Shown piece after piece: positions 25,137 to 54,462 of a DNA stretch of 64,000 nt. The DNA is taken from positions 143,098,001-143,162,000 of the forward strand of contig CM059431.1 of NCBI GenBank assembly GCA_030390025.1, given 5' to 3'. Position 1 is the first letter of the stretch; every line of letters starts with the position of its first letter. The notes beneath the pieces are model-generated. The model was not told the origin of the DNA. It was given only the letters and a program-made list of their open reading frames with translations, and made no database searches. The stretch comes from Squalus acanthias. Taxonomy: Eukaryota. The translations under genes and the position numbers were made by a program.

Positions 25137-25329
25137 TCAAATACCTATCGACCTATAAATCAGACTCTGAAAATCCGAAAACGCCCAATCCATTCAGGGT
25201 ATTGTGTCAATTTGGTAGCAATGATGCACTTGTTAAATGTGTAAAAGGTAATGGCATATTAAATCTAAATACTTGGGGAATTGATTCTTCTGTAACAGTT
25301 ATTGTTATCACTAATGACGCTACACAGGT

Positions 25330-29200: not shown

Positions 29201-32200
29201 CAGATTCTCATTGGTCACGATGGGCACAGTCTCACTGGTCACGATGGGCACAGTCTCACTGGTCACGATGGGCACAGTCTCACTGGTCACGATGGGCAGA
29301 TTCTCAGTGGTCACGATGGGCACAGTCTCACTGGTCACGATGGGCACAGTCTCACTGGTCACGATGGGCACAGTCTCACTGGTCACGATGGGCAGATTCT
29401 CAGTGGTCACGATGGGCACAGTCTCACTGGTCACGATGGGCACAGTCTCAGTGGTCACGATGGGCAGATTCTCATTGGTCACGATGGGCACAGTCTCATT
29501 GGTCACGATGTGCAGATTCTCACTGATCACGATGGGCACAGTCTCAGTGGTCAAGATGGGCACAGTCTCAGTGGTCACGATGGGCACAGTCTCAGTGGTC
29601 ACGATGGGCACAGTCTCAGTGTTCACGATGGGCACAGTCTTACTGTTCACGATGGGCAGATTCTCAGTGGTCACGATGGGCACAGTCTCACTGGTCAAGA
29701 TGGGCAGATTCTCATTGGTCACGATGGGCACAGTCTCACTGGTCACGATGGGCACAGTCTCACTGGTCACGATGGGCACAGTCTCACTGGTCACGATGGG
29801 CACAGTGTCACTGGTCACGATGGGCACAGTCTCACTGTCACGATGGGCACAGTCTCACTGGTCACGATGGGCACAGTCTCAGTGGTCACGATGGGCAGAT
29901 TCTCATTGGTCACGATGGGCACAGTCTCATTTGTCACGATGGGCACAGTCTCACTGGTCACGATGGGCACAGTCTCAGTGGTCACGATGGGCAGATTCTT
30001 ATTGGTCACGATGGGCACATTCTCATTGGTCACGATGTGCAGATTCTCACTGATCACGATGGGCACAGTCTCAGTGGTCAAGATGGGCACAGTCTCAGTG
30101 GTCACGATGGGCACAGTCTCAGTGGTCACGATGGGGACAGTCTCACTGGTCACGATGGGCACAGTCTCAGTGGTCACGATGGGCACAGTCTCTGTGGTCA
30201 CGATGGGCACAGTCTCATTGTTCACGATGGGCAGATTCTCACTGGTCACGATGGGCACAGTCTCACTGGTCACGATGGGCACAGTCTCAGTGGTCACGAT
30301 GGGCACAGTCTCACTGGTCACGATGGGCACATTCTCACTGGTGACGATGGGCACAGTCTCACTGTTCACGATGGGCAGAGTCTCACTGATGACGATGGGC
30401 ACAGTCTCACTGTTCACGATGGGTACATTCTCATTGGTCACGATGGGCACAGTCTCATTGGTCACGATCGGTGCAGTCTCACTGGTCACGATGGGCACAG
30501 TCTCACTGGTCACGGTGGGCACAGTCTCATTGGTCACGATGGGTAGAGTCTCACTGGTCACGATGGGCACAGTCTCACTGGTCACGATGGGTACAGTCTC
30601 ATTGGTCACGATGGGCAGAGTCTCACTGGTCACGATGGGCACAGTCTCACTGATCACGATGGGCACAGTCTCGCTGGCCACGGTGGGCACAGTCTCATTG
30701 GTCACGATGGGCACAGTCTCACTGGTCACGATGGGTACAGTCTCATTGGTCACGATCGGTGCAGTCTCACTGGTCACGATGGGCAGAGTCTCACTGGTCA
30801 CGATGGGTACAGTCTCATTGGTCACGATGGGCACAGTCTCACTGATCACGATGGGTACAGTCTCACTGGTCACGATGGGTACAGTCACACTGGTCACGCT
30901 GGGTACAGTCTCACTGATCACGATGGGCACAGTCTCACTGGTCACGATGGGTACAGTCTTACTGGTCACGGCGGGCACAGTCTCACTGGTCACGATGGGC
31001 ACAGTCTTACTGATCACGATGGGCACAGTGTCACTGGTCACGATGGGTACAGTCTTACTGGTCACGGCGGGCGCAGTCTCACTGGTCACAATGGGTACAG
31101 TCATACTGGTCACGTTGGGTACAGTCTTACTGGTCACGGCGGGCACAGTCTCACTGGTCACGATGGGTACAGTCTTACTGGTCACGGCGGGCACATTCTC
31201 ACTGGTCACGATGGGTACAGTCACAAAGGTCACGATGGGCACAGTCTTACTGGTCACGACGGGCACAGACTCACTGGTCACAATGGGTACAGTCACACTG
31301 GTCACGATGGGCAGATTCTCACTGGTCACGACGGGCACAGTCTCACTGGTCACGATGGGCAGAAACTCACTGGTCACGATGGGCACAGTCTCACTGGTCA
31401 CGACGGGCACAGACTCACTGGTCACGATGGGTACAGTCACACTGGTCACGATGGGCACAGTCTCACTGGTCAAGATGGGCAGATTCTCATTGGTCACGAT
31501 GGGCACAGTCTCACTGGTCACGATGGGCACAGTCTCACTGGTCACGATGGGCACAGTCTCACTGGTCACGATGGGCAATGTCTCACTGGTCACGATGGGC
31601 ACAGTCTCACTGGTCACGATGGGCACAGTGTCACTGGTCACGATGGGCACAGGCTCACTGGTCACGATGGGCACAGTCTCAGTGGTCACGATGGGCAGAT
31701 TCTCATTGGTCACGATGGGCACAGTCTCACTGGTCACGATGGGCACAGTCTCACTGGTCACGATGGGCACAGTCTCAGTGGTCACGATGGGCAGATTCTC
31801 ATTGGTCACGATGGGCACATTCTCATTGGTCACGATGTGCAGATTCTCACTGATCACGTAGGGCACAGTCTCAGTTGTCAAGATGGGCACAGTCTCAGTG
31901 GTCACGATGGGCACAGTCTCAGTGGTCACGATGGGGACAGTCTCACTGGTCACGATGGGCACAGTCTCAGTGGTCACGATGGGCACAGTCTCTGTGGTCA
32001 CGATGGGCACAGTCTCACTGGTCACGATGGGCAGATTATCATTGGTCACGATGGGCACAGTCTCAGTGGTCACGATGGGCACAGTCTCACTTGTCACGAT
32101 GGGCAGATTCTCACTGGTCACGATGGGCACAGTCTCAGTGGTCACGATGGGCACAGTCTCAGTGGTCACGATGGGCACAGTCTCACTGGTCACGATGGGC

Positions 32201-33914
32201 ACATTCTCACTGGTGACTATGGGCACAGTCTCACTGTTCACGATGGGCAGAGTCTCACTGATGACGATGGGCACAGTCTCACTGTTCACGATGGGTACAG
32301 TCTCATTGGTCACGATGGGCACAGTCTCATTGGTCACGATCGGTGCAGTCTCACTGGTCACGATGGGCACAGTCTCACTGGTCACGGTGGGCACAGTCTC
32401 ATTGGTCACGATGGGTAGAGTCTCACTGGTCACGATGGGCACAGTCTCACTGGTCACGATGGGTACAGTCTCATTGGTCACGATGGGCAGAGTCTCACTG
32501 GTCACGATGGGCACAGTCTCACTGATCACGACGGGCACAGTCTCGCTGGCCACGGTGGGCACAGTCTCATTGGTCACGATGGGCACAGTCTCACTGGTCA
32601 CGATGGGTACAGTCTCATTGGTCACGATCGGTGCAGTCTCACTGGTCACGATGGGCAGAGTCTCACTGGTCACGATGGGTACAGTCTCATTGGTCACGAT
32701 GGGCACAGTCTCACTGATCACGATGGGTACAGTCTCACTGGTCACGATGGGTACAGTCACACTGGTCACGCTGGGTACAGTCTCACTGATCACGATGGGC
32801 ACAGTCTCACTGGTCACGATGGGTACAGTCTTACTGGTCACGGCGGGCACAGTCTCACTGGTCACGATGGGCACAGTCTCACTGATCACGATGGGCACAG
32901 TCTCACTGGTCACGATGGGTACAGTCTTACTGGTCACGGCGGGCGCAGTCTCACTGGTCACGATGGGTACAGTCTTACTGGTCACGTTGGGTACAGTCTT
33001 ACTGGTCACGGCGGGCACAGTCTCACTGGTCACGATGGGTACAGTCTTACTGGTCACGGCGGGCACATTCTCACTGGTCACGATGGGTACAGTCACAAAG
33101 GTCACGATGGGCACAGTCTTACTGGTCACGACGGGTACAGACTCACTGGTCACGATGGGTACAGTCACACTGGTCACGATGGGCAGATTCTCACTGGTCA
33201 CGACGGGCACAGTCTCACTGGTCACGATGGGCAGAAACTCACTGGTCACGATGGGCACAGTCTCACTGGTCACGACGGGCACAGACTCACTGGTCACGAT
33301 GGGTACAGTCACACTGGTCACGATGGGCAGATTCTCACTGGTCACGACGGGCACAGACTCACTGGTCACGATGGGCACAGTCTCACTTGTCACGATGGGC
33401 AGAATCTCACTGGTCACGATGGGCACAGTCTCACTGGTCACGATGGGTACAGTCTCACTGGTCACGATGGGCACAATCTCACTGGTCACGATGGGTACAG
33501 TCTCACTAGTCACGATGGGCACAGTCTCAGTGGTCACGATGGGCACAGTCGCACTGTTCATGACGGGTGCCATCGTACTGGTCACGATAGGAATGGTCAC
33601 ACTAGTCATGAAGGGCACAATCGCACTGATCCAATAATCCATAATTGTGGATAAACTGAAAGCCCGTAAGGATGCTGTAGAAGTTGGAGGCTGTGCTGTT
33701 GAACTGGGGTGTGGACCTACTCTACCAAGTGAAGAGGAGGTTTCCATTGATGCAGGGTGAATGGGCGATCGAGGCGCAGTTGAACTTCTCATGGACGTGG
33801 TTGTACTTTTGATGCGGTGGTTCACAATCCTGGAGTTGAGAGAAAGTGGATTCTGGGATTCGGTGAGCGTCGGCAGCCCATTGGTCGGGGAATGCGCTCT
33901 GGTCATAGTTGTCA
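26249..33914 (-). CDS. Exon 7 (terminal) of transcobalamin-alpha/mucin gene: giant PTS mucin domain; 1-bp frameshift at ~29837
   Basis: Acceptor TTTCTCCTACTTCGCACAG| at 33915-33916, phase 1, in frame with ORF 29815-33942. About 265 x 24-nt VTSETVPI units, then about 16 x 48-nt SQVNTAPSSSINQTTP units; TAG at 26249-26251. Confidence 0.8.
27190..33620 (-). repeat. 24-bp coding tandem repeat (plus-strand unit GGTCACGATGGGCACAGTCTCACT) with higher-order duplications
   Basis: Directly visible; rare variants recur at an offset of 1872 bp. Confidence 0.97.
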
Positions 33915-33960
33915 CTGTGCGAAGTAGGAGAAACAATGTCAAAAGATCATGGGAGGCAAC

Positions 33961-34149
33961 GGGCAGTAAAGTTGGACTTGGGCAAAGATGGAAAACAGGG
34001 AGAATCGCATTTGCCAGCCGTTTTGCAACACGCCTGATATCCGGTTCTGTTGGAAATAGTGGAATGAATATCGGGGTTTATAAAGAAAGAAACGGGAGAC
34101 CGATGACATAACGCCTGTTTTGCGCCTTTGCACTTGTCCAATTTCACCC
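33961..34149. mobile_element. Palindromic MITE-like element
   Basis: Imperfect inverted ends (..AAAGTTGGAC / GTCCAATTTCACCC). Confidence 0.45.
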
Positions 34150-35145: not shown

Positions 35146-35332
35146 CTTTATATACAGGACAGGTTATCTTGTTCACGTCCAGGTAACTTTTTCCTCCCAG
35201 GGCTATCGCCACCTGTGACATTGTTGTAAGTTTTTCCCAGTTTCCCCGAGAAATTTCATGCACCATTTTCTGCACAGATTTGGTGCAATTATAGACACGT
35301 GAGGTGAACACGTTTATGTTTTCGTCCAGGGC
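35146..35332 (-). CDS. Exon 6, transcobalamin/intrinsic factor-like alpha domain
   Basis: AG|GCC...AAAG|GTAAGG, 187 nt, phase 0->1. ALDENINVFTSRVYNCTKSVQKMVHEISRGNWEKLTTMSQVAIALGGKSYLDVNKITCPVYK matches the family WNC....I.QG.F.NP....Q.LP.L.GKTYLDV...C. Confidence 0.9.
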
Positions 35333-35489
35333 CTGGAGTGTAAAGAAGGTAAAACTAATTTTAATATTTAATTTTAATGATCCGGAGATCATTTAGTCTG
35401 AGCACATATGAACTCTGTTTCAAAGCACTGTAATATAAAGTGGGAGTGAATGGAAATAAAAATCGGGAGAGATCGGGCTGCAGATTCGC

Positions 35490-36590
35490 CATCACCTGTT
35501 TTACACCTTAAAGAGTGTGCAGTGACCCAGGGACGTGGGAGTTAATGTCATAGTTCCCTGAAGGTGGCAGGACATATTGAGAGAATGGTTAGCAATGCCA
35601 ATGTCATAAATAAAGGTATTGAGTACAAAAGTAGAAAAGTTATGCTCAGCCTCTTTGAAGCTCTGGTTAGACCACAACTGGCGTGTTGCATCCAGTTGTG
35701 GTCACCACAGTTTAGGAAGGATATGAAGGACCTTGAGAGAATGCAGAGGAGATTTACCATAATGGTTCCGGGGATGGGGTATCTTAGCTACAAGGACAGT
35801 TTGGAGAAGTTGGATTTGTTTTCATTAGAGCAAAGGAGGTTGAGGGATGATTTGATGGAGATTTACAAGATTATGACGGGTTTGGATAGGCTAGACGGGG
35901 ACAGGCTTATCCCACTAGTTGATGGTACAAGGACTAGGGGACAAAGATTTAAGGTTTTGTGCAAGAGGTACAATGGGGGATGTGAGGAAAAAAAAATTTT
36001 ATGCAGCGAGTGGCGAAGACCTGGAATTCGCTGCCGACGAAAGTTGTGGAAGCGGAGACACTCAATGCTTTCACGGGGAGACTGGGTAGGCACTTGATGG
36101 AATAAACTTGCAGGGCTACGGGGATGGAGCGGGGGAATGGGACTGACTGGATGTTCTACAGAGAGCCGGATTGGACTCGATGGGCCGAATGGCCTCGTTC
36201 TGTGCCGTTATGAATCTATTACTCTATGATTCTATTACTGAAAGGTGAACTAAAAGAGCTCTTCAAAATTATGAATGGATTTCATAAGGTAAACGTAGAG
36301 AAGACGTCTCCACTTGCAGGGTGAGTCCAAAACTAGGGTCCATACATATAAGATAGCCACTCATAAACCCAACAAGGAATTTAGGAGAAACTTCTTCACT
36401 AGAGAGTGGATAGAAGTTGTAACTCGCTATCACAAGGAGTAGCATAGGAAGCGAATAACAAAGATTGATTTAAGGGAAATATATATGAAGGAGAAAGGAA
36501 TAGAAGGATATGGTGATAGGGTTAGTAGGGCGGGAGGAGCCTCGTGTGGCCCACAAACACACGAATGACCTGTTTCTGTACTGAACATTC
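35490..36590 (+). mobile_element. Two adjacent CR1 3' fragments
   Basis: ORF 35564-36097: LVRPQLACCIQLWSPQFRKD..LFSLEQRRLRDDL. Confidence 0.85.
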
Positions 36591-37181
36591 CATTTAAAGA
36601 TTGTCCTCTTGGAATTTGAAGTCAACCAGTTTCTCAATATAACTCAACATCCTGTTTACATTGTTTATCGCCACTTCAGTGTATTGATTTGATGAACATT
36701 GAATCATTCGCATTCTGTTGTGATTACTTTAACTGTGAGCGATGATGTACAATGGCCAATTTTGAATTAACCGGCCATTGTATACCATGCCCGATTTTCC
36801 TTTGCATTGAATCCATGGAAGGTAAAATCTGGTGCCTGTAAATTGAAGAGCAATTGGATATTACCCATTTTACACCTTCACCAAAAGTTAAAATCACCCC
36901 TTAAATCTATTTCAACCAATGCCCTCCGCTCCTGGCGAGTTCTATCCCATGAAAGATATCGAGGTGTCTCAGAATCTTCCACTAGGATGTATTTTGCAAT
37001 ACTTCACACTGAACGTCATCTGAACAAATTGAACACCGATACACCAATACTGCAAAATCGTGTCTATGCTCTAATTGTTTAAGGTCTATCGCTTAATATG
37101 TTGTGAAGAAGCTGTTAATTACTAACTGCCCTTAGCTCTAATTAAATCAGAATCCTATTTTCTAATTTCACATCACAATAC

Positions 37182-37357
37182 CTGCATGGCCAGCCCTGTA
37201 CTGCTCAAGCTCCCAATGGTCCCGTCCTCTCTCACTTCACTTAGAATCCGCCTCATTATCCACATTAACGACTTTGCGATGTCAAGCCGAGATCTGCCTC
37301 TTGGTTGTTGCGAGTGTATCCAACACCTCAGACTAAGTGCCGCGGTGGCCATTGTAA
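37182..37357 (-). CDS. Exon 5, transcobalamin-like alpha domain
   Basis: TGTTGTAG|TT..ATGCAG|GTATTG, 176 nt, phase 1->0. VTMATAALSLRCW...EDGTIGSLSSTGLAMQ matches the family DT.AMA.LA..C and G..GN.YSTGLAMQ. Confidence 0.92.
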
Positions 37358-37839
37358 CTACAACACAGGAAACAATTACCATCGGTTCATGGAGTAAATT
37401 TGACAGGAGGGTCGGTAAATGGAGGACACAGATGTACGATATTGGCAAATGAATCTGAGGGGAGATGGGGAGTCATTTTTGCTTTTTTACACAGCGAGTT
37501 GTTATAATCTGGAATGCACTGCCTGAACGGGTGATGGAAGCAGATTCAATGGTGACTTTGAAAAGGGAATTTGATATATACTTGATAAGGATACAAATAC
37601 AGGGTTATGTCCTATGGGGAAAGAGAAGGGAGAGTGGGATTAATTGGGGAGCTATTTCAAAGAGCCACCACAGGTACGATGGGCCAACAGGCCTCCTTCT
37701 ATAAGTTTAGATGATTCTATGATGTCCGAAGCCTCCCATGCACAAGCGATCCGATCACCCATGGATGAAGAGACGCTTCCCAAATTTCCCATCATTTTCC
37801 TCACAACTGGTGTCCAATGGACTCCCTCCCAGCACTCTT

Positions 37840-38995
37840 CATCAATCGTAACCGGTGAATGCAAATAACCTCTTTCCGAACTCCATCAAATGGATATCTT
37901 CACCAATCGTAACCGGTGAACCCAGTAACCTCTTTCAAAACTCCATCAAATGGATATCTTCACCGACCGTAACCGGTGAACCCAGTAACCTCTTTCAAAA
38001 CTGCATCAAATTGATATCTTCACCGACCGTAACCTGTGAACACAGGTAACCTCTTTCAAAACTGCATCAAATGGATATCTTCACTGACCGTAACCTGTGA
38101 ACCCCGGTAACCTCTTTCAGAACTCCATCAAATGGATATCTTCACCAATCGTAACTGGTGAACGCAGGTAACCTCATTCAAAACTCCATCAAATGGATAT
38201 CTTCACCAAGCATAACCTGTGAACCCAGATAACCTCATTGAAAACTCCATCAAATGGATATCTTCACCAATCGTAACCCGTGAACCCAGGTAACCTCATT
38301 CAAAACTCCACCAAATGGATATCTTCACCGACCGTAACCTGTTAACCCAGGTAACCTCTTTCAAAACTGCATCAAATGGATATCTTCACTGACCGTAATC
38401 TGTGAACCCCGGTAACCTCTTTCTATAACTCCATCAAATGGATATCTTCACTAACCGTAACCTGTGAACCCCGGTTAATTCATTCAAAACTCCATCAAAT
38501 GGATATCTTCACCAACCGTAACCTGTGAACCCAGGTAACCTCATTCAAAACTCCATCAAATGGATATCTTCATCGACCGTAACCTGTGAACACAGGTAAC
38601 CTCTTTCAAAACTGCATCAAATGGATATCTTCACCGACCGTAACCTGTGAACCCGGCTAACCTCTTTCCAAACTCCATCAAATGGATATCTTCACTGACC
38701 ATCACCTGTGAACCCAGATAACCTCTTTCTATAACTCCATCAAACATATACCTTAACCGACCGTAACCTGTGAACACCGGAAACCTCTTTCTAAAACTCC
38801 ATCAAATGGATATCTTCACCGACCGTAACCTGTGAACTCTGGTAACCTCTTTCAAAACTACATCAAATGGATATCTTCACTAACCGTAACCTCTGAACCC
38901 CCCGGGTAACCGCTTTCAAAACTCCATCAAATGGATATCTTCACCGACCGTAACCTGTGAACCCAGATAACCACTTTAAAAACTCCATCAAATGG
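37840..38995. repeat. 60-61-bp intronic minisatellite (ACCGTAACCTGTGAACCCAGGTAACCTCTTTCAAAACTCCATCAAATGGATATCTTCACCG)
   Basis: About 19 tandem copies. Confidence 0.95.
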
Positions 38996-39042
38996 GTATT
39001 TTTGAAACTATAAAATGAAACATCTTGTCTGCTCAGACATAC

Positions 39043-39198
39043 CTACTGTTAATTCTTTCCCGTGATGAGCGATCTTCCTGAGATGAGCCCGGATGAAATT
39101 ATGAATGAGAAAGCCCGGGACAGGTTCCTCCTCCTGACACAGCGCCAGGATCGCCAGGCTGGCTTCAGTAAAGGCCTTTAGAGAATATCCAGCGTTTT
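39043..39198 (-). CDS. Exon 4, transcobalamin-like alpha domain
   Basis: TATTTACAG|AA..GTAG|GTATGT, 156 nt, phase 1->1. ENAGYSLKAFTEASLAILALCQEEE..KELTV matches the family P.TNYYQ.SL..LALC ... SV(D). Confidence 0.88.
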
Positions 39199-39689
39199 CT
39201 GTAAATACAGTGACAGACTCCAATGTTGGTGATATGCTCCACATCTGACAAACGGGAGACACAGATATGAGAATTCCTCACTAGTTCGTCCCCGATCCTC
39301 TCTGTGTGCCAGAAATCAGGCCAAGGATTTAAATGAATAAATTGAATTGGTGTAGAATTTACAGCACAGAAGGAGGCTATTCGGCCCATCAGGTCTAATT
39401 ATGCTCCACATGAGCCTCCTCCTACCTTACTTCATCTCAGTCGAGCAGCTTATCCGAGGGAGCTTATTCATTTCTCCCTCATGAACTTGTCTAACTTCGC
39501 CTTAAATACATCTATACAATTCGCCTCAACTTCTCCTGTGTTAGCAAATTCCACATTCTCGCCACTCTTCGGGAAAATAAGTTTCTCCTGAATCCCCCAT
39601 TGTTTTTTAGTAGTGACTCTACAGCGGAGTAATGCTCTCCGGCATGGCTATCAAGTACACATGACAAATCCGATGATGTCCAGCTGAAT

Positions 39690-40190
39690 TCTACTAGAAG
39701 AATTATCACCAGTACGCTTTTATCGACACCAACACCTTGGCTGCCCGTGCTTGCAAACATCACACCACCACACCTAAGCCGCGAATATGCAGTGTCCATA
39801 GAATACAACCGCTACACCAGCAAAGACATGCCAATCCAGGCCGACTTGAACAATCTAGCACCAAACCGTCTCTAATCTAGAAGGCTATATTGGACCGTGG
39901 CCAAAGCCCTTCAGCGATCTCCCCTCAGCCTTGATGACTGATGGCGAAATGCTTGGAAGCATTGTGACGTACGGAATGGATTGCTTATAGAGGATCCCAA
40001 AGTACAAACTGAAGGATCAAACCTTCCTCGCAAACAGTGGACAACCATCAACCGCCTCAGAACCGGTCGCCACCTTCTAATTAGAAGGAAGATTAAAACA
40101 TCCCCATCATGAGACAGACTGTGAAGCTCCTAATCAGACCCTGGAGAACAGCATTGAGCACTGCCCTCAGAGGAAATTCGTAGGCAGCAT
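39690..40190 (+). mobile_element. RTE-like LINE 3' fragment
   Basis: Encodes STPTPWLPVLANITPPHLSR and QWTTINRLRTG-like motifs. Confidence 0.55.
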
Positions 40191-40194
40191 AAAT

Positions 40195-40665
40195 AAGAAT
40201 ATAAGAAATAGGAGCAGGATTAGGCCATTTGGCCCTTCGAGCCTGCTCAACAATTCAATAAGATTTATGTTATACTTCTACCTCATCTCAACTTTCCTGC
40301 ATTATCCCCATATCTCTTGATTCCCTTAATATTCAAAAATCTATCGATCTCTGTCTTGAATGTACTCAACGACTCAGCCAATTCCAAAGATTCGCCACCC
40401 TCTGAGTGAAGACATTTATTCTCATTTCAGTCCTAAATGGCAGACCCCTTATTTTGAGACTGTGACCCCTGGTTCTGGACTCCCCAGCCAGGGAAAACAT
40501 CCTCCCTACATTTACCCAGTCAAGCCCTGTAAGAATTGTGCATGTTTCAATTAGATCATCTCTCATTCTTCTAAACTCTAGAGAATATTGGCCTAGTCTA
40601 GTCAATCAGACCTCATAGGACAATCTCCCCATCCCAGGAACCAGTCTGGTGAACCTTCGTTGTAA
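40195..40665 (-). mobile_element. CR1 3' fragment
   Basis: ORF 40366-40605: LGQYSLEFRRMRDDLIET..FTQRVANLWN. Confidence 0.85.
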
Positions 40666-41109
40666 GAAATCCATGCTGTTACACTGGAATTTTTGGCATT
40701 GATATCTGATTTAGATATTGACATTGGATTTGCTTTGCTACTACCATACGAAAGAAGAAGTATCGACTACCTTATATTTATGGTCCCTAATTATAATCTC
40801 CTCTACAAGTGGAAACATCTGCTCTACTTCTACCCTGTAGAACCACTTCATCATTTTAAAGAGCTCTGTTAGCTCACTTTTCAATCATCTCTTTTCCAGA
40901 TGAAAGAGCCCCAGCGACTCCAGCCTTTCTTGATAAATAACATAGATAATAATAGATGAATAAATACATGCTACAAGGGTTTTATTTCACGGATATAATC
41001 ATAAACCATTGCCTTTATAAACCAGGAGTCAGCATTCCAATTCCCTTTAGGCCTGGAGTCAATTGGTTCTTTTAAAAAGTGCTGGATAAATGTTTGCACT
41101 TTAATGTGT

Positions 41110-43135
41110 TTGGAGGTTATGGGGAGAGATACAAACTGTGCGAGTAATTCTATTGGTGTTTACAGGGACATGTATGGACTGAGAAGGCAGTGGGATTGGA
41201 GGTTATGGGGAGAGATACAAACTGTGAAAGTAATTCTGTTGGTGTTTACAGGGACAGTTATGAACTGAGAAGGCAGTGGGATTGGAGGTTATGCGGAGCC
41301 GCCGACTGTTATGGGAATAGAACCGGAAATTGTTGCGATTAAAGCAGAATGAGGTGAGAATGAGGCTGGAGGTTATGCCGGGAGATACAGATTGGGTGTG
41401 ATTGCAGGTTATAGGGACAGGTACAGACTGAGATGTGAGTGTGATTGGAGGTTATAGGGACAGGAACAGATTGAGATGTGAGTGTGATTGGAGGTTATAG
41501 GGACAGGTACAGAATGAGATGTGAGTGTGATTGGAAGTTATAGGGACAGGTACAGAATGAGATGTGAGTGTGATTGGATGGTAAAGCGACAGGTACAGAC
41601 TGAGAGGTGAGTGTGATTTGATGTTAAAGCGACAGTTACAGACTGAGATGTGAGTGTGATTGGAGGTTATCGGGACAGGTACAGACTGAGATGGGAGTGT
41701 GATTGGAGGTTATAGGGAGAGGTACAGTCTGAGATGTGAATGTGATTGGAGGTTATGGGGACAGGTACAGACTGAGATGTGAGTGTGATTGGATGTTAAA
41801 CCGACAGGTACAGACTGAGATGTGAGTGTGATTGGATGTTATAGCGAAAGTTACAGACTGAGATATGAGTGTGATTGGATGTTATAGCGACAGTTATAAA
41901 CTGAGATGTGAGAGTGATTGCAGGTTATAGGGACTGGTACAGGCTGAAATGTTAGTGTGATTGGAGGTTATAGGGTCAGGTACAGACTGAGGTGGGAGTG
42001 TGATTCCTGGTTATGGAGAGAGGTACAGACTGAGATGTGAGTGTGATTGGAGGTTATATAGAGAGGTATAGACTGAGAAGTGAGTGTAATTGGAGGTTAT
42101 GGGGACAGGTACAGACTGAGATGTGAATGTGATTGGAGGTTATGGGGACAGGTACAGACTGAGATGTGTGTGTGATTGGAGGTTATGGGGACAGGTACAG
42201 ACTGAGATGGGAGTGTGATTGGAGGTTATAGGGACAGGTACAGACTGAGATGGGAGTGTGATTGGAGGTTATGAAGAGAGGTACAGACTGAGCTGTAAGT
42301 GTGATTGGAGGTTATAGTGTCAGGTACAGACTGAGATGTGAGTGTGATTCCTGGTTATGGAGAGAGGTACAGACTGAGATGTGAGTGTGATTGGAGGTTA
42401 TAGCGACAGGTACAGTCTGCGATGTGACTGTGATTGGAGGTTATGGGGACAGGTACAGGCTGAGATGTGAGAGTGATTGGAGGTTATGGGGACAGGTACA
42501 CAATGAGATGTGAGTGTGATTCCTGGTTATGCGGACAGGTACAGACTGAGGTGTGAGTGTGATTCCTGGTTATGGAGACAGGTACAGACTGAGATTTGAG
42601 TGTGATTGGAGGTTATGGAGAGAGTTACAAACTGAGATGGGAGTGTGATTGGAGGTTATGGAGAGAGGTACACACTGAGATGTGAGTGTGATTCCTGGTT
42701 ATGGGGACAGGTACAGACTGAGATGTGAGTTTGATTGAAGGTTATGGAGAGAGTTACAGACTGAGATGGGAGTGTGATTGGAGGTTATGGAGAGAGGTAC
42801 AGATTGAGATGTGAGTGTGATTCCTGGTTATGGGGAGAGGTACAGATTGAGATGTGATTGTGATTCCTGGTTATGGAGACAGGTACAGACTGAGCTGTGA
42901 GTGTGATTGGAGGTTATGGAGAGAGTTACAGACTGAGATGGGAGTGTGATTGGAGGTTATGGAGAGAGGTACAGACTGAGATGTGAGTGTGATTCCTGGT
43001 TATGGGGAGAGGTACAGATTGAGATGTGAGTGTGATTCCTGGTTATGGAGATAGGTACAGACTGAGATGTGAGTGTGATTGGAGGTTATGGAGAGAGGTA
43101 CAGGCTGAGATTTGAGTGTGATTGGTGGTTTTCAG
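41110..43135. repeat. 43-bp intronic minisatellite (GGAGGTTATGGGGACAGGTACAGACTGAGATGTGAGTGTGATT)
   Basis: About 40 tandem copies plus degenerate leading units. Confidence 0.95.
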
Positions 43136-43206
43136 CTTGTGTTTGCTGAAAGATGCATCTCAATCTCTGTGCAAATAACATGCCTAAAGCATGAGTCGAA
43201 ACTTAC

Positions 43207-43377
43207 CTTTAGAAGTTGTTATCCTAGGTATTTGATGCAGTTCACTGTAGAGCCTCTCACGTAGCACCTCCACCAAATTCACCTCCTTGTTCTCTGCTGA
43301 TATCTTGGCTGAGTTCCGACAAGAGGATCTGAAGGCTAAGATGTAGAAAACCAACTTGTCTATGGGAAAGTCTTCAC
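43207..43377 (-). CDS. Exon 3, transcobalamin-like alpha domain
   Basis: CCGCCAG|GT..AAAG|GTAAGT, 171 nt, phase 1->1. GEDFPIDKLVFYILAFRSSCRNSAKISAENKEVNLVEVLRERLYSELHQIPRITTSK matches the family GQLALY.LAL.SSC.DP....V.L...L; not in the ORF track. Confidence 0.9.
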
Positions 43378-44329
43378 CTGGCGGCAGAGGAACAAACGAG
43401 ATTCAGTTTGTTCTGACTGGGTCCATCAATACCTAACTGGTTAGTGATTATAAATCCCTCCTCTACACTCTGAAGACTTGTATTAATATTCCACCTCATT
43501 TTAACTCTCAAAAACAACTCAAAGTGCTTCACGTGTAATACATTATTTGAAGTGCAGACACCCTTGTTATATCGACCAATTCTGGAGCCATTTTGTGGAC
43601 AGCAATATCCCACAAACAGCAAAGAAGTGAATAGCCAGGTAACCTGTTCTAAATTCTTCACCAGCGACACGGTAAATGGATTAACTGGTAATGTATTTCA
43701 TTGGTACTTGTGGCATCTTGTGTCCAATTGTTTGTCGAGGTTGTCTATGAAAGATAAATGGCTGCATTTCATTGGCTGTGAAACAACTGCACAAGAGAAA
43801 TGTAAGTTTCTCCCCCTTCACTCTCCTTCTCTCTTTAAATTACTTTGGGTGTTAGCTGGGGAATAAATGTTGGTCAAGACCCCGGCAGCACTCTCCCTTC
43901 TTGTTCCAATAAAGCCGTTTCATCTTCAAATTCCACAAGAAAAGATTCAGGGGATAATTTTAGATTTAGACGATGTTGTAAAATAGGCGACTCCGATTAG
44001 GCCGCCGATTAAAGATCCCGCCCGATTTTCACCTCCATTGGAAAGAAAAATCAAGCATGGTGTAAAAGGGCAGCTAATGCAATTTCGAGCAGGGGACAGT
44101 GTAATGATTTCTGATTTCAAAACAACGAGAGAGCAAGAAGCAGAACCACCGTGCAGGATGGGGGATATAGGGTTCAGGTGGAAGAACAAGGGAATGTTTA
44201 GAGCTGCTAAAATTCCCATCATAGTATCAGGAACAAAGGTGGTGCAAGAAATGTCAGCTCGGCCCATTCACCTGAGGGCAGAATTCCAGCGAGAAGTCTC
44301 CCTCCCTCCCTCTCTTCATCTTCCTCTGT

Positions 44330-44376
44330 ATGTGTCTGTTTCCCTCTTTCTCCATCTCACTCTTTCTCTTTCTCAA

Positions 44377-44409
<33 letters not shown>

Positions 44410-44625
44410 GACTCGGATATATATGCACACACATACACATATAAACACAAACAGACACGTATACACTCACAGAAACACATATACATACAGAAGCACAGAC
44501 ACAGAAACGCATAGACATACACACACACAATTGCAAAGAAACCCACGGAACGATATACACAAAGAAACATGGAAACACACACACACATAAACATATACAC
44601 ACAAACACACGCAAACATATACAGA
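44330..44625. repeat. (CT)/(CA)-rich microsatellite
   Basis: Degenerate dinucleotide runs. Confidence 0.85.
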
Positions 44626-45306
44626 AACTTCAATGGCACATTGCTGCAAGTTAATCCGTGGGATCTTGATTCAAATGGTTGTGAAATTGTAGACTGTAAT
44701 AAAGTGAACTGCACTGTGGAAAAGATGTAGAATTGCATGAGGTGTGTCAACTTTCAACATTGGCTCTCATAAAATGGGCGCCATCGACAGTCATATAAGC
44801 TGCTATTTTTAAATTACCCTGTTTATTTTAAATGGACGAAATCCTCTATTCGGAACATTGGAATTTCTGGGGAGACTAAAGACCAAGGTGCATCTAATTC
44901 TGCTTCTACTATCCTTGTAGTCGCATGACAATGGGGTTGTTGTATAATAATAGTAATCAGTCTCTATAAATTAGTTTTCAACAGACACAGACACGAGGCG
45001 AGGAATACCCAGTGCTGGTGAGCTTTGTGAACCATAGGTCCAAAATCACCGGTTCCTCCCAAGCACGCTACACTGACCATGTGTAAAGTCTCAAATTACA
45101 CTTATACTCTATCTCAAATGTTACGTTTTGATGTCAAACAGAGTAATACGACATGAACGGGCTAGAAGTTGGGTCACTATTATCATGGGGCCATTCTTAG
45201 GTTCAAATTTCCTTCATTAACAATAGTTTGCCAGCCACTCATCCTGTCAACAGTAATAAAGATTTAATCCAGATACATCCACATTACCTAATAGTTGACT
45301 CCTTAC

Positions 45307-45489
45307 CTGATCCAACATTTCTAACAGCCGCCTCAGTCAGCCTTCGGAGAATGTCTTGTTCACTCTGCAGATCATTCTCACTCCCCAGGCGCAGGACAAT
45401 GAAAGCCCCGGGGTCTGGCTCCACGGACAGATCACTCAGTTTCCTCTCTATACTCCGAAGAAGTGATTTCTGCTGATTATCTGGAGCCG
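45307..45489 (-). CDS. Exon 2, transcobalamin-like alpha domain
   Basis: GATTCCAG|CG..TCAG|GTAAGG, 183 nt, phase 1->1. TAPDNQQKSLLRSIERKLSDLSVEPDPGAFIVLRLGSENDLQSEQDILRRLTEAAVRNVGS matches the family PNPS..I.LRL...HNL..E. Confidence 0.85.
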
Positions 45490-45559
45490 CTGGAATCCAC
45501 AACCCAATTATTAATCCACTCGCGTGTAATGGACATTAAGATAGCAGTAACACTTAAAG

Positions 45560-46520
45560 AGCTTGAGGATAATCAGAAGGCGCATGTGGTCGGTGAACAC
45601 AACATATGAACTTACAGTAAGAACATGCATTGTGGTAAACAGTGAAGAGGATAGTAGCAGACTTCAGGAGGACACAGACAGACTGGTGCAATGGGCAGTC
45701 ACATTGTAGATGACATTCAATGCAGAGAAACCTGAAATGGTGCATTTTGAAAGAAGAATGAGGAGAGGTAATATAAACTAAATAGTACAATTGTATTCGG
45801 GGCGCAGGAAGAGAGAGACCTCGGGTTCACGTACACAAATCTTTGAAGGTGGAAGGACATATTGACAAATCTTTTTAAAAAAATGACGGGATCCTTGGCT
45901 TTCCAAATAGAGGCACAGAGTAGAAAAGCAATGAATTTGTGGCAAACATTTATAAATCATTAGTTATGCCTCAGTTAGTGCATTGTGTCCAATTCTGGGC
46001 AACAAACTTTAGTCAAGGCCTTGGAGAGGGTGCAGAGGAGATTTACCAGAATGGTAGCAGCGATGAGGGACTTCAGTTATGTGGAGAGACTAGACAAGCT
46101 GGGGTTGTTCTCCTTAGAGCAGAGAGTATTAAAGGGCGATTTAATAGAGGTGATCAATATTATGGAGGTGTTTGATAGAGTAAATAAGAAGAAATTTCTT
46201 CCACTTGCAGGAGCTTGTCGATCACACAGATTTAAGGTAATTGGCAAAAGAACCAGAGGGTAAATTAGGAGATTTTTTGAATGCAGCGATGTTGTTGCGG
46301 TCTGGAATGCAGTCCCTGAAACGGTGCTGGAAGCATCTTCCATAGTAACTGTCAAAAGGGGTTTGGAATGTGTTCTTGAGGGGAGAAAAATGCAGGGCCT
46401 GGGGAAAGAGCAGGGTGGGTGGGACTGATTACACTTTCAAAGAGCAGGCAGAGGTACGATGGGCCGAATGGGCTCCTTCTGTACGATAAGATTCTAAGTT
46501 TCTATAATTCTATGATTCTA
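45560..46520 (+). mobile_element. CR1 3' fragment
   Basis: IYKSLVMPQLVHCVQFW / ALERVQRRFTRMV..LGLFSLEQR; TCTATGATTC-type tail. Confidence 0.85.
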
Positions 46521-46600
46521 AATTATGATAAAAACTCAGCTTAACGATAAACATCAGGTTTAGATTAAACATTGGGCACTAAACAACAAATCGCACTTAC

Positions 46601-46670
46601 TGCATTGCTGGGATGTTGCCGGGTACGAGGCACTGAAGAGCAGGAGTGTGAGGGTCATCACCGGGGGCAT
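46601..46670 (-). CDS. Exon 1 (signal peptide) of transcobalamin-alpha/mucin gene
   Basis: ACAATGC start; MPPVMTLTLLLFSASYPATSQQC then |GTAAGT, 70 nt, phase 1; hydrophobic core plus the first conserved Cys. Confidence 0.75.
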
Positions 46671-47984: not shown

Positions 47985-48510
47985 AATATCAGGTGGGGAG
48001 TGTAGGGCCGATAATGGGACTGAATATCAGGCAGGGAGTGTTGGGGTGATAATGGGACTGAATATCAGGTGGGGAGTGTAGGGGCCGATAATGGGACTCA
48101 ATATCAGGCGGGGAGTGTAGGGGCCGATAATGCGACTGAATATCAGGCGGGGAGTGTAAGGGCCGATAATGGGACTGAATATCAGGTGGGGAGTGTAGGG
48201 GCCGATAATGGGACTGAATATCAGGTGGGGAGTGTAGGGGGCTGATATTGGGACTGAATAACAGGCAGGGAGTGTAGGGGCCGATAATGGGACTGAATAT
48301 CAGCCGGAGAGTGTAGGGCGGCTGATAATGGGACTGAATATCAGGCGGAGAGTGTAGGGCGGCTGATAATGGCGCTGAATATCAGGCGGGGAGTGTAGGG
48401 CGGCTGATAATGGGACTGAACATCAGGCGGTGAGTGTAGGGCGGCCGATACCGGGACTGAATATCAGGCGGGGAGTGTAGGGCGGCCGATAATGGCGCTG
48501 AACATGAGGC
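47985..48510. repeat. 39-41-bp minisatellite (GAATATCAGGCGGGGAGTGTAGGGGCCGATAATGGGACT)
   Basis: About 13 tandem copies. Confidence 0.95.
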
Positions 48511-48514
48511 AGTC

Positions 48515-51500
48515 CTGCCCAATCAGTACATTGTGAGCCTGTCCCTCTCTCGTTGCTCCCCAATCAGTACATTGTGAGCCTGTCCCTCTCTCAGTGCTGG
48601 TCAATCAGCACATTGTGAGCTTTTCCCTCTCTCAGCGCTGCCCAATCAGTACATTGTGAGTCTGTCCCTCTCTCAGTGCTGCACAATCAGTACAGTGTGA
48701 GCCTGTCCCTCTCAGTGCTGCCCTATCAGTACATTGTGATCTTGTCCCTCTCTCAGTGCTGCCCAATCAGTACATTGTGAGACTGTGCCTCTCAGTGCTG
48801 CCCAATCAGAACATTGTGTGCCTGTCCCTGTCTCAGTGCTGTCCAATCAGTATATTGTGAGCCTTTCCCTCTCTCAGTGCTGCACAATCAGTACATTGTG
48901 AGTCTGTCCCTCTCTCAGTGCTGCCCAATAAGTACATTGTGAGCCTGTCCCTCTCCCAGTGCTGCCCAATCAGTACATTGTGAGTCTCTCCCTCGCTCAG
49001 TGCTGCCCAATAAGTACATTGTGAGCCTGTCCCTCTCTCAGTGCTGCCCAATCAGTACATTGTGAGGCTGTCCCTCTCTCAGTGCTGCCCTATCAGTACA
49101 TTTTGAGCCTGTCCCCCTCTCAGTGCTGCCCAATCAGTACATTGTGACCCTGTGCCTCTCTCAATGCTGCCCAATCAGTACATTGTGAGTCTGTCCCTCT
49201 CAGAGTGCTGCCCATTCAGTACATTGTCAGCCTGTCCCTCTATCAGTGATGCCCAATCAGTACATTGTGAGTCTGTCCCTCTCTCAGTGCTGCCCAATCA
49301 GTACATTGTGAGCCTGTCCCTCTCTCAGTGACGCCCAATCAGTAAATTGTGAGTCTGTCCCTCACTCAGTGCTGCCCCATCAGTACATTGTGAGTCTGTC
49401 CCTCTCTTATTGCTGCCCAATTAGTACATTGTGAGCCTGTCCCCCTCTCAGTGCTGCCCAATCAGTACATTGTGAGCCTGTCCCCCTCTCACTGCTGCCC
49501 AATCAGTACATTGTGAGCCTGTCCCTCTCTCAGTGCTGGTCAATCAGCACATTGTGAGCTTTTCCCTCTCTCAGCGCTGCCCAATCATACATTGTGAGTC
49601 TGTCCCTCTCTCACTGCTGCACAATCAGTACATTGTGAGCCTGTCCCTCTCAGTGCTGCCCAATCAGTACATTGTGATCTTGTCCCTCTCTCAGTGCTGC
49701 CCAATCAGTACATTGTGAGCCTGTGCCTCTCAGTGCTGCCCAATCAGTACATTGTGTGCCTGTCCTTCTCTCCGTTCTGCCAAATCAGTACATTGTGAGA
49801 CTGTCCCCCTCTCAGTGCTGCACAATCAGTACACTGTGAGTCTTTCCCCCTCTCAGTGCTGGTCAATCAGCACATTGTGAGCTTTTCCCTCTCTCAGTGC
49901 TGCCCAATCAATACATTGTGAGCCTGTCCCTCTCTCAGTGCTTCCCAATCAGCACATTGTGAGCTTGTCCCTCTCTCAGTGCTGCCCAATCAGTACATTG
50001 TGAGCCTGTCCATCTCAGTGCTGCCCAATCAGTACATTGCGTGCCTGTCCATCTCTCCGTGTGCCCAATCAGTACATTGTGAGCCTGTCCCTTTCTCCGT
50101 GCTGGTCAATCAGTCCATTGTGAGCCTGTCCCCCTCTCTCAGTGCTGCCCAATCAGTACATTGTGAGCCTGTCCCTCTCAGTGCTGCCCAATCATTACAT
50201 TGTGAGGCTGTCCCTCTCTCAGCGCTGCCCAATCAGTACATTGTGAGCCTGTCCCTCTCTCAATGCTGCCCAATAAGTACATTGTGAGCCTGTCCCTCTC
50301 AGTGCTGCCCAATCAGTACATTGTGAGGCTGTCCCGCTCTCACTGCTGCCTATCAGTACATTTTGAGCCTGTCCCCCTCTCAGTGCTGCCCAATCAGTAC
50401 ATTTTGAGCCTGTCCCCATCTCAGTGCTGCCCTCTCAGTACATTTTGAGCCTGTCCCCCTCTCAGTGCTGCCCAATCAGTACATTGTGACCCTGTGCCTC
50501 TCTCAATGCTGCCCAATCAGTACATTGTGAGTCTGTCCCTCTCAGAGTGCTGCCCATTCAGTACATTGTGAGCCTGTCCCTCTATCAGTGATGCCCAATC
50601 AGTACATTGTGAGTCTGTCCCTCTCAGTGCTGCCCAATCAGTACATTGTGAGCCTGTCCCTCTCTCAGTGACGCCCAATCAGTACATTGTGAGTCTGTCC
50701 CTCACTCAGTGCTGCCCAATCAGTGCATTGTGAACCTGTCCCTCTCTCAGTGCTGCCCAATCAGTACATTGTGAGTCTGTTCCCCTCTCAGTGCTGCCCA
50801 ATCAGTACATTGTGAGACTGTCCCCCTCTTTCAGTGCTGCCCAATCAGTACATTGTGAGCCTGTCCCTCTCTCAGTGCTGCTCAATCAGTACATTGTGAG
50901 CCAGTCTCTCTCTCAGTGCTGGTCAATCAGTACATTGTGAGCCTGTCCCTGTCTCAGTGCTGCCAATCAGTACATTGTGAGCCTCTTCCTCTCTCAGTGC
51001 TCCCCAATCAGTACATTGTGAGCCTGTCCCTCTCTCAGTGCTGGTCAATCAGCACATTGTGAACTTTTCCCTCTCTCAGCGCTGCCCAATCAGTACATTG
51101 TGAGTCTGTCCCTCTCAGTGCTGCCCAATCAGTACATTGTGATCTTGTTCCTCTCTCAGTGCTGCCCAATCAGTACATTGTGAGCCTGTGCCTCTCAGTG
51201 CTGCCCAATCAGAACATTGTGTGCCTGTCCTTCTCTCCTGCTGCCAAATCAGTACATTGTGAGCATGTCCCTCTCCAGTGCTGTCCAATCAGTATATTGT
51301 GAGCCTTTCCCTCTCTCAGTGCTGCACAATCAGTACATTGTGAGTCTGTCCCTCTCTCAGTGCTGCCCAATAAGTACATTGTGAGCCTGTCCCTCTCCCA
51401 GTGCTTCCCAATCATTACATTGTGAGTCTGTCCCTCTATCAGTGCTGCCCAATCAGTACAATGTGAGCCTGTCCCTCTCTCAGTGACGCCCAATCAGTAC

Positions 51501-52320
51501 ATTGTGAGTCTGTCCCTCTCTCAGTGCTGCCCAATCAGTACATTGTGAGTCTGTCCCTCTCTCAGTGCTGTTCAATCAGTACATTGTGAGCCTGTCCCTC
51601 TCTCAGTGCTGCACAATCAGTACTTTGTGAGCCTGTGCCTCTCTCAGTGCTGCCCAATCAATACATTGTGACCCTGTCCCTCTCTCAGTGCTGCCCAATC
51701 AGTACATTGTGAGCCTGACCCCCTCTCAGTGCTGCCCAATCAGTACATTGTGATCCTGTCCCCCTCTCCGTTCTGCCCAATCAGTACATTGTGAGCCTGT
51801 CCCTCTCTCAGTGATGGTCAAATAGTAAATTGTGAGCCTGTTCCCCTCTCAGTGCTGACCAATCAGTACATTGTGAGCCTGTCCCTTTCAGTGCTGCCCA
51901 ATCAGTACATTGTGAGCCTGGCCTTCTCTCAGTGCTGCCCAATCAGTACATTTTGAGCCTGTCCCTCTCTCTCAGTGCTGCCCAATCAGTACATTGTGAG
52001 CCTGTCCCTCTCTCAGTGCTGCCCAATCAGTACATTTTGAGCCTATCCCCCACTCTCAGTGCTGCCCAATCAGAACATTGTGAGCCTGTCCCTCTCTCAG
52101 TGCTGCCCAATCAGTACATTTTGAGCCTGTCCCCCTCTCTCAGTGCTGCCCAATCAGTACATTGTGAGCCTGCCCCTCTCTCAGTGCTGCCCAATCAGTA
52201 CATTGTGAGCCTGTCCCCCTCTCTCAGTGCTGCCCAATCAGTACATTGTGAGCCTGTCCCTCTCTCAGTGCTGCCCAATCAGTACATTGTGAGCCTGTCC
52301 CTCTCTCAGTGCTGCCCAAT
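48515..52320. repeat. ~41-bp minisatellite (CAGTGCTGCCCAATCAGTACATTGTGAGCCTGTCCCTCTCT)
   Basis: About 90 tandem copies. Confidence 0.97.
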
Positions 52321-52726
52321 TTCCGATTTGCTATTTGTACAAAAGCTCAGCTCTGCTGGGTGAGGGGTTCAATAATTTATCCATTATAACCACTACAGCC
52401 ATATACCCAGAATCACCTGAGGATTTGTAATCAGATGTCTGCAGTACAATGTGCGTGAGATAGTATTCACCAACAGAGGGAACATTTCACCTTCACCCAG
52501 CTCGCCATGTTAATTAACTATTAGTGTCCCATGTAGATTTGCAAGATCACTCAGAAATTTCCTGTCAACCAAGATTCACATGAACTGTTTTAGTTTTCTA
52601 AATGTTTACGATTAAAATTTCGAAATAGTTCGTGTGACATTTTACTGAAAAACAGAGCAGTGTATCGGATCTTTCTTCAACAATATAACTAACATTGAAA
52701 CCACTTTCTGTCTGTTCTAATTGAAG

Positions 52727-54462
52727 ATGTTCAACAGAAACACAAGGAAACACTCCGGGTACAAACTGAAACACTGAGAGTGAACACTATCCTAATAAAG
52801 GAGAAGGTTAAGATTTTTCAGCTGTTTGATCGATACGCTGAGCTAACGCTCATTTCTACTGTTCGAGATCGGACACTTGTAGAATATGAACTGCTGGCAA
52901 GAGGCCGAGACCATGAAGAGTGGAGAGAGGAACATCTCCGGAGAGAGCTGGAAAAAATCCGACCTGATCAATTCTTCCAGAGCAGTTTTTCCCAGTGAAA
53001 ATTCAAATCTGGGAGTTCAGGAGTAGTGAGCGGCGTCCCGGGGATTAGAAAAACAACAATGGTACAAAAGATTGTTCATGACTGGGCCACTGGGAAAATA
53101 TTCCCACACTTTCAATTTGTTTTCAGCTTTAAATGCCGGGATTTGAAAGACGTTGACTGTGGAATAAACCTGAGGAATCTGATACTCTTTTTCTATCCTT
53201 ACTTTGGGAATATTCTGAGAGAGATCTGGACGAACCCAGAGGGATTGCTGTTTATATTCGATGGCTTGGATGAATTCAAGGACGGGATCGACTTTGCTGA
53301 CAATCTGAGAAATACAGAACCTCAGCACATATGCACAGATCCCGAAGCCTGGTGTGAAGAGTCTGACATTGTGTACAGTTTGATACAGCACAAGCTGCTC
53401 CCAGGATGTTCAGTGCTAGTGACCAGCCGCCCCACTGCATTACATTTATTGAAAAAGGCTGAGATCAGTGATGGTCTGAAATCCTGGGATTTGTTGGTGA
53501 AGAACGGAAGGCATATTTCAACAAATTTTTTGAAGATCAGACAGTGGCAGCAGCTGTTTTCAAACACGTGGAGGAGAACGACATCCTGTACACCTTATGC
53601 TACAATCCTTCCTGCTGCAGTATCCTCGGTCTGTCACTGGGCCCCTTCTTTACACAATGAGACAGGAAACAGCATCGAGTTCCCAAGACCAACACCCAAC
53701 TATATTCCTACTATATCTACAACATTCTGAAAAACCATGGCTGAGAGATTGAAAGCCCTCGTGATGTGTTACTGAAGCTTGGTGAGATGGCCTTCACAGG
53801 AGTCTCCGAGAAGAAGATTGTGTTTAGAAATGGAGATTTGATCAAGTACAATCTGCAGCCTTCCCAGTTCCTGTCTGGGTTCATGATGGAACTTTTGGAG
53901 AGAGATAATTCTGCCCAGAGCGTAGTGTACACATTCCCGCACCTCACCATCCAAGAGTTTGTAGCCGCACTCGCACAATTCCTGACTCCAGATCCCGGGG
54001 ACATCCTGAAACTCCTCAGAGAAGCCCACAGCAAGGAAGATGGCCGATTTGAGATATTTCTCCGTTTTGTTGCTGGTCTCTCCTCCCCACAGTCAGCTCG
54101 GCCCCTGGAGGAGTTTCTGGGTCAATTTCTTCATCAAACCACCTGCCGAGTGATTGACTGGGTGAAGGAGAAGGTTGAAGGACAGATTGGGAACATGTGG
54201 AGTGAAACTGGTAAAAGGAACCTCCTGAACACATTCCACTACCTGTTTGAGTCTCAGAATAAAGCACTGGCTCGGAAAACAGTGGTATCTGTGGAATCAC
54301 TTACATTTAGTGGATTGACATTGACCCCGATTGACTGTGCGGTCCTGTCTCATGTTATTGGAAGCTGTGATATAATAAAACACCTCGTTCTTCAGAGCTG
54401 CTACATTTCGTGTGAAGGACTCCAGCGGCTGGGATCGTACTGCACAAATGCTGGGTGTTGAG
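52727..54462 (+). pseudogene. NLR (NACHT-LRR, fish/shark-expanded type) NACHT exon, disabled
   Basis: AG|ATGTT acceptor and GAG|GTAACT donor. Walker A GVPGIRKT (normally G.PGIGKT), Walker B LLFIFDGLDEF, VLVTSRP, YTFPHLTIQEFVAAL, FLRFVAGL, HYLFESQN. Stops at 52996-52998 and ~53742; frameshifts at ~53470 and ~54435. Confidence 0.92.

Follow-up and report, generated by a model that had tools for sequence, protein, structure and literature searches.

The window analysed here, 64,000 nucleotides of the 3.7-Gb Squalus acanthias genome (C7:143098001-143162000), carries a gene with a predicted head like the alpha domain of the cobalamin (B12) carriers, namely intrinsic factor (IF), haptocorrin (HC) and transcobalamin (TC). 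We consider it moderately probable that this gene is one of 13 recent copies of an elasmobranch gene in which splicing is predicted to join an IF/HC-like alpha barrel to a repeat tail, giving a likely secreted, mucin-like protein that likely carries no B12, whose head would most likely serve as an anchor, and of which the window copy is likely a duplicate under relaxed selection. B12 carriage was likely lost because only the front half of the carrier is kept, no back half lies nearby, and a mucus-like repeat tail is predicted. The stronger case is made by the absent beta domain and the repeat tail, which lie beyond the part of the locus considered in a preliminary description; that description had started from the pocket motifs of the head. 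The subfamily is a variant within the known PF01122 family; what is new here is the separation of old from private pocket changes, together with the selection counts.

Head exons and the predicted repeat tail

The head gene comprises six real exons on the minus strand, and its nearest protein relatives are from sharks. Every donor is GT and every acceptor AG, the exon phases are 1,1,1,1,0,1, and the spliced frame is open over 314 codons. Exon 1 (46601-46670) holds the ATG, a signal peptide predicted by eye and Cys23, and was found in 11 of the 13 copies within the stretches covered. Each of exons 2-6 matches PF01122, in profile order, with E-values from 0.056 to 1e-9, and two of the matches pass the cut-off. 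Exon 2 (45307-45489) matches profile positions 29-79 of the alpha domain (E 0.056), and exon 3 (43207-43377; E 3.5e-4) carries the IDKLVFY motif and Cys104. Exon 4 (39043-39198) encodes KAFTE (39178-39164), Cys162 and a basic HNFIRAHLRK helix, and its final base opens codon 194, which is completed in exon 5 (37182-37357; E 2e-8) with Cys205 and GSLSST (37214-37197). Exon 6 (35146-35332; E 1e-9) contains Cys268, Cys310 and a conserved SQ. The cysteines at positions 23, 104, 162, 205, 268 and 310 of the spliced frame align with the six alpha-domain cysteine columns of the transcobalamin/intrinsic-factor family. Splicing and column alignment thus bear out the open frame and six cysteines of the preliminary description; the disulfide pairing is presumed, the alignment covering the cysteine columns only.

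Exon 6 ends in phase 1, and the next in-frame acceptor lies at 33914. It would open a Thr/Ser/Pro-rich repeat exon of approximately 7.7 kb (predicted exon 7, 26249-33914, minus strand; TAG at 26251-26249), a mucin-like tail standing where beta-domain exons would be expected. An alternative in-frame acceptor is found at 34046, making alternative splicing possible. The 44 codons between the two acceptors (33915-34046, minus strand) are open in 12/13 copies, one of which lacks the upstream AG. Within the predicted exon, a 24-bp array (27183-33628, minus strand) comprises 268.6 copies of an ETVPIVTS-type unit, with 32% Ser+Thr and 12% Pro. It is followed by a 48-bp array (26140-26989, minus strand) of 17.6 copies of a QTTPSQVNTAPSSSIN-type unit, with 46% Ser+Thr and 12% Pro. 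The tail has a net charge of -113, and no transmembrane-grade stretch was seen in the three tails examined (best 19-residue hydropathy 1.57). Judged by composition, it is mucin-like rather than a textbook Pro/Thr/Ser (PTS) domain.

A repeat exon follows exon 6 in all 13 copies. The first open tail stretch spans 281 to 1883 residues in the nine copies with full-length, in-frame exons 1-6. In the window, a 1-base deletion near 29836, which may be real or an assembly error, closes the first tail frame near 29817, after 1366 tail residues; in copy C7_140.6 the tail reads through 1883 residues before the equivalent TAG is reached. Past the stop, the region 25065-26026 (minus strand) is likely 3' untranslated. 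It contains a 51-bp array (25396-26026), which in sister copies is frequently interrupted and out of frame, as well as AATAAA at 25136 and 25065. Pfam gave no support for a beta or SEA domain in the 25210-25794 frame, and that reading was rejected. A single RNA contig (153 bases, unspliced, run X1) lies at 33901-34053.

The missing beta domain

The main doubt about B12 binding arises because no beta-domain exons follow the head, but a repeat exon instead. A beta-domain hidden Markov model, for which 40 of 44 candidate proteins were used, picked up the full set of three beta exons in both the C1824-A and C13 genes, which served as positive controls. It found no beta exon in the window, in the 20 kb past the window start, or in twelve 30-kb paralogue stretches. 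Searching the genome with one beta exon gave four matches, on C1824, C13 or C474 and none on C7. Each of the four follows, at a distance of a few to 12 kb, an alpha exon 6 with the same orientation, and hence no beta-only gene was found in this search, in which only five candidates were scored and sensitivity was low. A genome search with Pfam DUF4430 returned nothing, canonical genes included, and is not used as evidence.

At least seven more genes or gene fragments of the family are present in the genome (on C1824, C474, C13, C2752 and C3652), with beta exons in C13, C1824-A and both C474 copies. C1824-B resembles Heterodontus XP_067874885.1 and has no beta exon within 19 kb. A second beta-less gene, at C12:103838500-103850000, has alpha exons and then a likely exon 7 with a stop nine residues in; it resembles the ray proteins XP_059841370.1 and XP_072907805.1 and keeps more pocket residues. 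Outside the cartilaginous fishes, the lungfish model XP_043939940.1 (323 residues) is alpha-only and highly divergent.

Orthologues, fold and phylogeny

The same layout is found in other elasmobranchs. Narcine bancroftii XP_069792302.1 (993 aa, 'mucin-2-like') has the same head and a PTS-rich tail, as does Chiloscyllium punctatum GCC19399.1 (with a partial head). Neither has a beta match, and PF01122 was the only domain found in either, with no VWD/cysteine-knot or SEA domain. The orthologues score 129-169 bits against PF01122. The head is 66% identical to the Mustelus orthologue and 54% to the ray orthologue, both of which have open frames and six cysteines. Databases split this subfamily under misleading names ('cobalamin binding intrinsic factor-like' and 'mucin-2-like').

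For the subfamily, the kept fold of the preliminary description is supported: the AlphaFold model of the Mustelus orthologue (mean predicted local distance difference test score, pLDDT, 84.7) keeps the barrel. Its top matches in Foldseek and VIA are IF, HC and TC (Z 30-31, with Z 31 to TC and IF), the next fold following at Z 20. An ESM Atlas search returned only bacterial prenyltransferase/cyclase barrels, under 0.9, and a word-index protein search with P0001 returned only P0001 itself.

In a careful tree of 60 rows, from which five of the genome's own copies and seven redundant or partial proteins were left out, the window head, three paralogues, Mustelus and Narcine form a clade with 100/100 support and a long stem (0.85). 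This clade lies outside the TCN2 clade and is otherwise not placed by the tree; by sequence, the subfamily is nearer IF and HC than TC. A sister relation to the alpha-only stub genes, supported at 91 in a quick tree, had no support in the careful one and was dropped.

Old and private changes in the pocket

We compared the head with 41 alpha-plus-beta (two-domain) proteins, after dropping two isoforms and one fragment. The strings DKLVFY, KAFTE, TVVT, GSLSST and SQ, cited in the preliminary description, are all present in the window copy. Y152, Q153, D194, N243, Y245 and N286 are changed, while S246, T247 and Q292 are kept. The statement that only the Ser of ST and the Gln of SQ remain goes too far; at T195, G242, S246, T247, S291 and Q292 the window copy has the residue that is commonest in the two-domain binders. 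The Gln of GQLALY is no invariant of the family, since position 92 is variable in these proteins (Q in just 10/41, L in 13 and K in 4).

The changes fall into two groups. G91>D, 149>K, the loss of an aromatic residue at 152, Q153>E, N243>S/T and Y245>S/K are common to the shark copies, Mustelus and Narcine. Among the 41 two-domain binders, G91 is found in 39 and an aromatic residue at 152 in all; Q153 is found in 34, with E not in the five commonest residues, and position 243 is N in 35 and D in 5. KAFTE stands in place of TNYYQ in 13/13 copies. On this alignment, both TNYYQ and GNxYST were replaced before the shark-ray split.

Q92K, D194V and N286K, on the other hand, are private to the window copy. 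Codon 92 (43355-43357, minus strand) is AAG (Lys) where CAG (Gln) is kept in 10/10 other copies having exon 3. D194V results from one A>T change at 37357, the first base of exon 5; Asp is found in 12/12 other copies, Mustelus and 40/41 two-domain binders, and Glu in Narcine. N286K (codon 35233-35231), previously unremarked, replaces an Asn kept in 12/12 other copies. The loss of the Asp is thus confined to the window copy, and as a private change in one duplicate it shows no selection against B12 binding.

Motif change alone is also no proof of lost binding, because human IF binds B12 with SAFYGP where TNYYQ stands and with Asp for the Asn of GNxYST. The TNYYQ motif has been called highly plastic in an earlier study (PMC4350170). 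Polar conserved columns were not clearly lost faster than non-polar ones (10/16 vs 31/42 kept). The TC contacts used for comparison are taken to be Q86, T134, Q138, D176, N224, S227 and Q273. In the Mustelus model, the equivalents of positions 150, 243 and 286 lie just ahead of helix starts, and some of these residues may be helix caps.

The head has also gained conserved residues. In total, 44 columns do not vary between two paralogues, Mustelus and Narcine, yet have the same residue in at most 10% of the 41 two-domain binders. They include K149, E153, H174, R178, H180, R182, K183, Q211, R213 and R264, many of them basic, and would thus fit a new function held by selection. The head's net charge is +3/+4 in its own genome and +13/+14 in the Mustelus and Narcine orthologues; the two-domain binders have a median of -3, with values from -19 to +10.

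Copies and selection

Exon 5 has 13 copies in the genome with 91-100% identity, eight on C7 and five on unplaced contigs, some of which may be haplotype duplicates. Exons 1-6 are intact, with all cysteines and splice sites, in six copies (the window copy, C7_142.2, C7_140.6, C7_143.7, C7_137.8 and C3521). The other seven are damaged: reading frames are shifted, splice sites are dead, exons are truncated or missing, or Cys23 is replaced by Tyr. This last change is found in C7_140.1 and C7_139.8, where it would leave Cys268 unpaired; C7_139.8 additionally has two extra cysteines in its GSLSST motif.

We counted private and shared variants, in place of a branch-wise dN/dS, over nine of the 13 copies, leaving out four broken ones. 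Variants shared between copies comprise 14 replacement and 21 silent changes (a replacement-to-silent rate ratio, omega, of 0.21; p 1e-5 vs neutral). Private variants of the nine copies comprise 40 replacement and 11 silent changes (omega 1.15 vs silent sites; Fisher p 0.0005 vs shared), with the replacements at 0.59 of the intron rate (p 0.002). The window copy itself has eight private replacement and three silent changes (omega 0.85; replacement/intron ratio 0.92), and its pairwise omega is 0.95-1.19 to its three nearest copies and 0.32-0.56 to the others. The contrast between the shared omega of 0.21 and the private omega of 0.85 suggests that the head was once constrained and that the window copy is now seemingly unconstrained. 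The window copy is thus likely a redundant duplicate under relaxed selection.

The preliminary description had proposed that selection kept the barrel but not B12 binding, and had named a dN/dS near 1 as evidence to the contrary. For the subfamily the proposal holds up, with the fold kept, an omega of 0.21 and two motifs anciently replaced. It does not hold for the window copy, in which the Asp and Gln changes are private and dN/dS is near 1, albeit on small counts.

Function of the head

Splicing would join the alpha barrel to a long tail of Thr/Ser/Pro repeats rather than to a beta domain. The barrel would have been kept under selection while gaining subfamily-specific conserved residues, many of them basic. 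The head could then tether a bottle-brush tail, acidic and O-glycosylated, to a surface that is anionic (microbes, or the glycans of epithelium or mucus). The changes at Asp194, Gln92 and Asn286 are found in the window copy alone, likely a redundant duplicate under relaxed selection. Within this account, high-affinity B12 binding has probably been lost, secretion of the product and a non-cobalamin role of the subfamily appear likely, and the tail may be O-glycosylated. For the anchoring role, with a putative ligand, we would put the chances slightly below even. More tentatively, the subfamily may be a new secreted-mucin class made from half a B12 carrier, whose barrel binds a non-cobalamin ligand via a remodelled pocket and a conserved basic face, in a gene still expanding while single copies retune the pocket.

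Several observations weigh against this account. Neither the exon 6-7 join nor expression has RNA evidence, the four RNA contig sets being uninformative (exon 6 is uncovered and there are no exon joints). Two Mustelus gene models end without a PTS-rich tail, and tail homology across species is weak (pairwise BLAST E 0.003-0.016). With 32% Ser+Thr, the tail is below the usual threshold for a PTS domain (at least 40% Ser+Thr and more than 5% Pro, as defined in PMC4948705), as are those of Narcine (26%) and Chiloscyllium (25%), and it is rich in Val and Ile (33%). The head charge in the shark's own genome is within the range of ordinary binders. D194, S/T246, T247, N286 and Q292 are kept in sister copies and Mustelus, which also fits a retained ligand pocket. 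The counts for the window copy are small (11 coding changes), and these changes fall on pocket positions above chance (p 0.001-0.015, for sets chosen post hoc).

It seems unlikely that the head has kept a part in capturing B12 or corrinoids, whether weakly or paired in trans with a beta domain, as a mucus-tethered scavenger. Alpha and beta domains supplied separately are reported to come together on cobalamin in both TC (PMC5599065) and IF (PMC6257451), and zebrafish is reported to have beta-only binders (PMC10778862). IF binds without TNYYQ, and the five pocket residues kept by the sister copies (except for Cys at 246 in C7_139.8) and Mustelus (with T for S246) are also what such a role would predict. 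However, there is no beta-only gene among the four genome matches (five candidates scored, at low sensitivity), D, N and Q are lost in Narcine as well, the window copy has no Asp, and Q153>E, the loss of Y152 and G91>D are subfamily-wide. A distinctly improbable alternative is that the head serves mainly to oligomerise the mucin, or that its partner is a receptor for B12 uptake, either CD320-like or cubilin. CD320 is reported to bind the TC alpha domain alone (PMC4947154), and a head Lys aligns with TC Lys105. Yet the TCN2 clade does not include the subfamily, the copies have Arg, His or Cys and Narcine has His where TC has Lys114, and cubilin reportedly requires both domains of holo-IF (same source). 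The cubilin, CD320 and trans-beta ideas of the preliminary description thus gained no support.

Equally doubtful is a retuning of the window copy by positive selection, its private changes stripping the last pocket residues for a new ligand. Three of its eight private replacements fall on three of the nine motif positions where sister copies have the TC-type residue (hypergeometric p 0.001), and two of the four presumed contact sites are hit (p 0.004, or 0.015 over the nine copies), in a copy whose splice sites and six cysteines are all intact. These site sets were, however, picked after the data were seen and rest on presumed contacts. Moreover, private replacements overall accumulate as fast as changes in the introns (ratio 0.92), the tail is interrupted by a frameshift, and the private changes may be sequence error. 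Finally, we think it very unlikely that the whole cluster consists of dying duplicates of a broken B12-carrier gene with a functionless head. Damage in exons 1-6 of 7/13 copies, a private omega of 1.15 over nine copies and the lack of an RNA join (in uninformative contigs) would all fit such decay. Against it stand the shared omega of 0.21, private replacements at 0.59 of the intron rate (p 0.002), and a head with 66% identity to Mustelus and 54% to the ray, in both of which the frames are open and the six cysteines present.

Relation to known systems

Among solved structures, CBLIF (PDB 2PMV, 3KQ4) and TCN1 (4KKI) are the best sequence matches of the Mustelus orthologue (E 1e-21 and 3e-17). 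Its model shares their alpha6/alpha6 barrel (Z 30-31, root-mean-square deviation 2.1-3.0 A), as well as the six cysteine columns. Compared with both, the subfamily has approximately 25% identity, no beta domain, a repeat tail, TNYYQ and GNxYST replaced, and many recent copies. TCN2 (2BB5, 4ZRP) has the same fold (Z 30-31) but forms a separate clade (100/98), and the genome still has, on C13, a two-domain gene with TCN2-clade proteins among its best matches. Little skate Tcn3 is likewise a divergent, elasmobranch-only family member, stomach-expressed; it is described as two-domain (PMC4350170) but may still be identical to this subfamily. Alpha-only elasmobranch stubs (Hypanus XP_059841370.1, Hemitrygon, Pristiophorus and the C12 gene) also have no beta domain, but they stop a few residues into exon 7 and keep more motifs. 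Lineage-specific secreted mucins that arose by exonic repeat gain (PMC9417175) offer a parallel: there too, a repeat exon of variable copy number is added to a secreted precursor, and no transmembrane segment is present. In those mucins, however, the precursor is a proline-rich protein rather than a folded nutrient-carrier domain, and here Ser+Thr is below the usual threshold.

In a literature search with subscription journals outside its coverage, we found no published description of an alpha-head, mucin-like subfamily. If our account is true, this would be a natural beta-less counterpart of the alpha-less binders of zebrafish, a transcobalamin alpha barrel at work outside B12 transport, and a case of a folded carrier domain turned into a mucin head via exonic repeat gain. 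It would also allow the function of an isolated alpha domain to be tested directly. In earlier work, TC-alpha:CD320 was purified without cobalamin and cobalamin was required for the two domains to assemble (PMC5599065), fragments of cleaved IF were reported to reassemble (PMC6257451), and the primary cobalamin site is C-terminal (PMC3331988).

Other elements in the window

Long minisatellites occur with periods of 26 bp (13496-16694), 61 bp (37836-38999), 43 bp (41389-43130) and 41 bp (48510-52320). The 61-bp and 43-bp arrays lie inside introns 4 and 3 of the head gene, respectively, and fragments of long interspersed nuclear elements (LINEs) are also present in its introns. An NLR-type gene (NACHT, NOD2_WH, NLRC4_HD2) at 52699-54458 (plus strand) is likely a pseudogene, with an in-frame TGA at approximately 52996 and a frame change near 53727. 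It belongs to a large family with 92-93% identity and many members on C29. Co-duplication with the head gene is unsupported, as none of the best 40 of 359 candidates lies beside a sister copy. An open frame of 830 residues at 57960-60449 (plus strand) matches reverse transcriptase and, weakly, GIY-YIG, and is presumably a Penelope-like retroelement. A broken-up LINE with endonuclease and reverse transcriptase pieces lies at 7900-10730 (minus strand).

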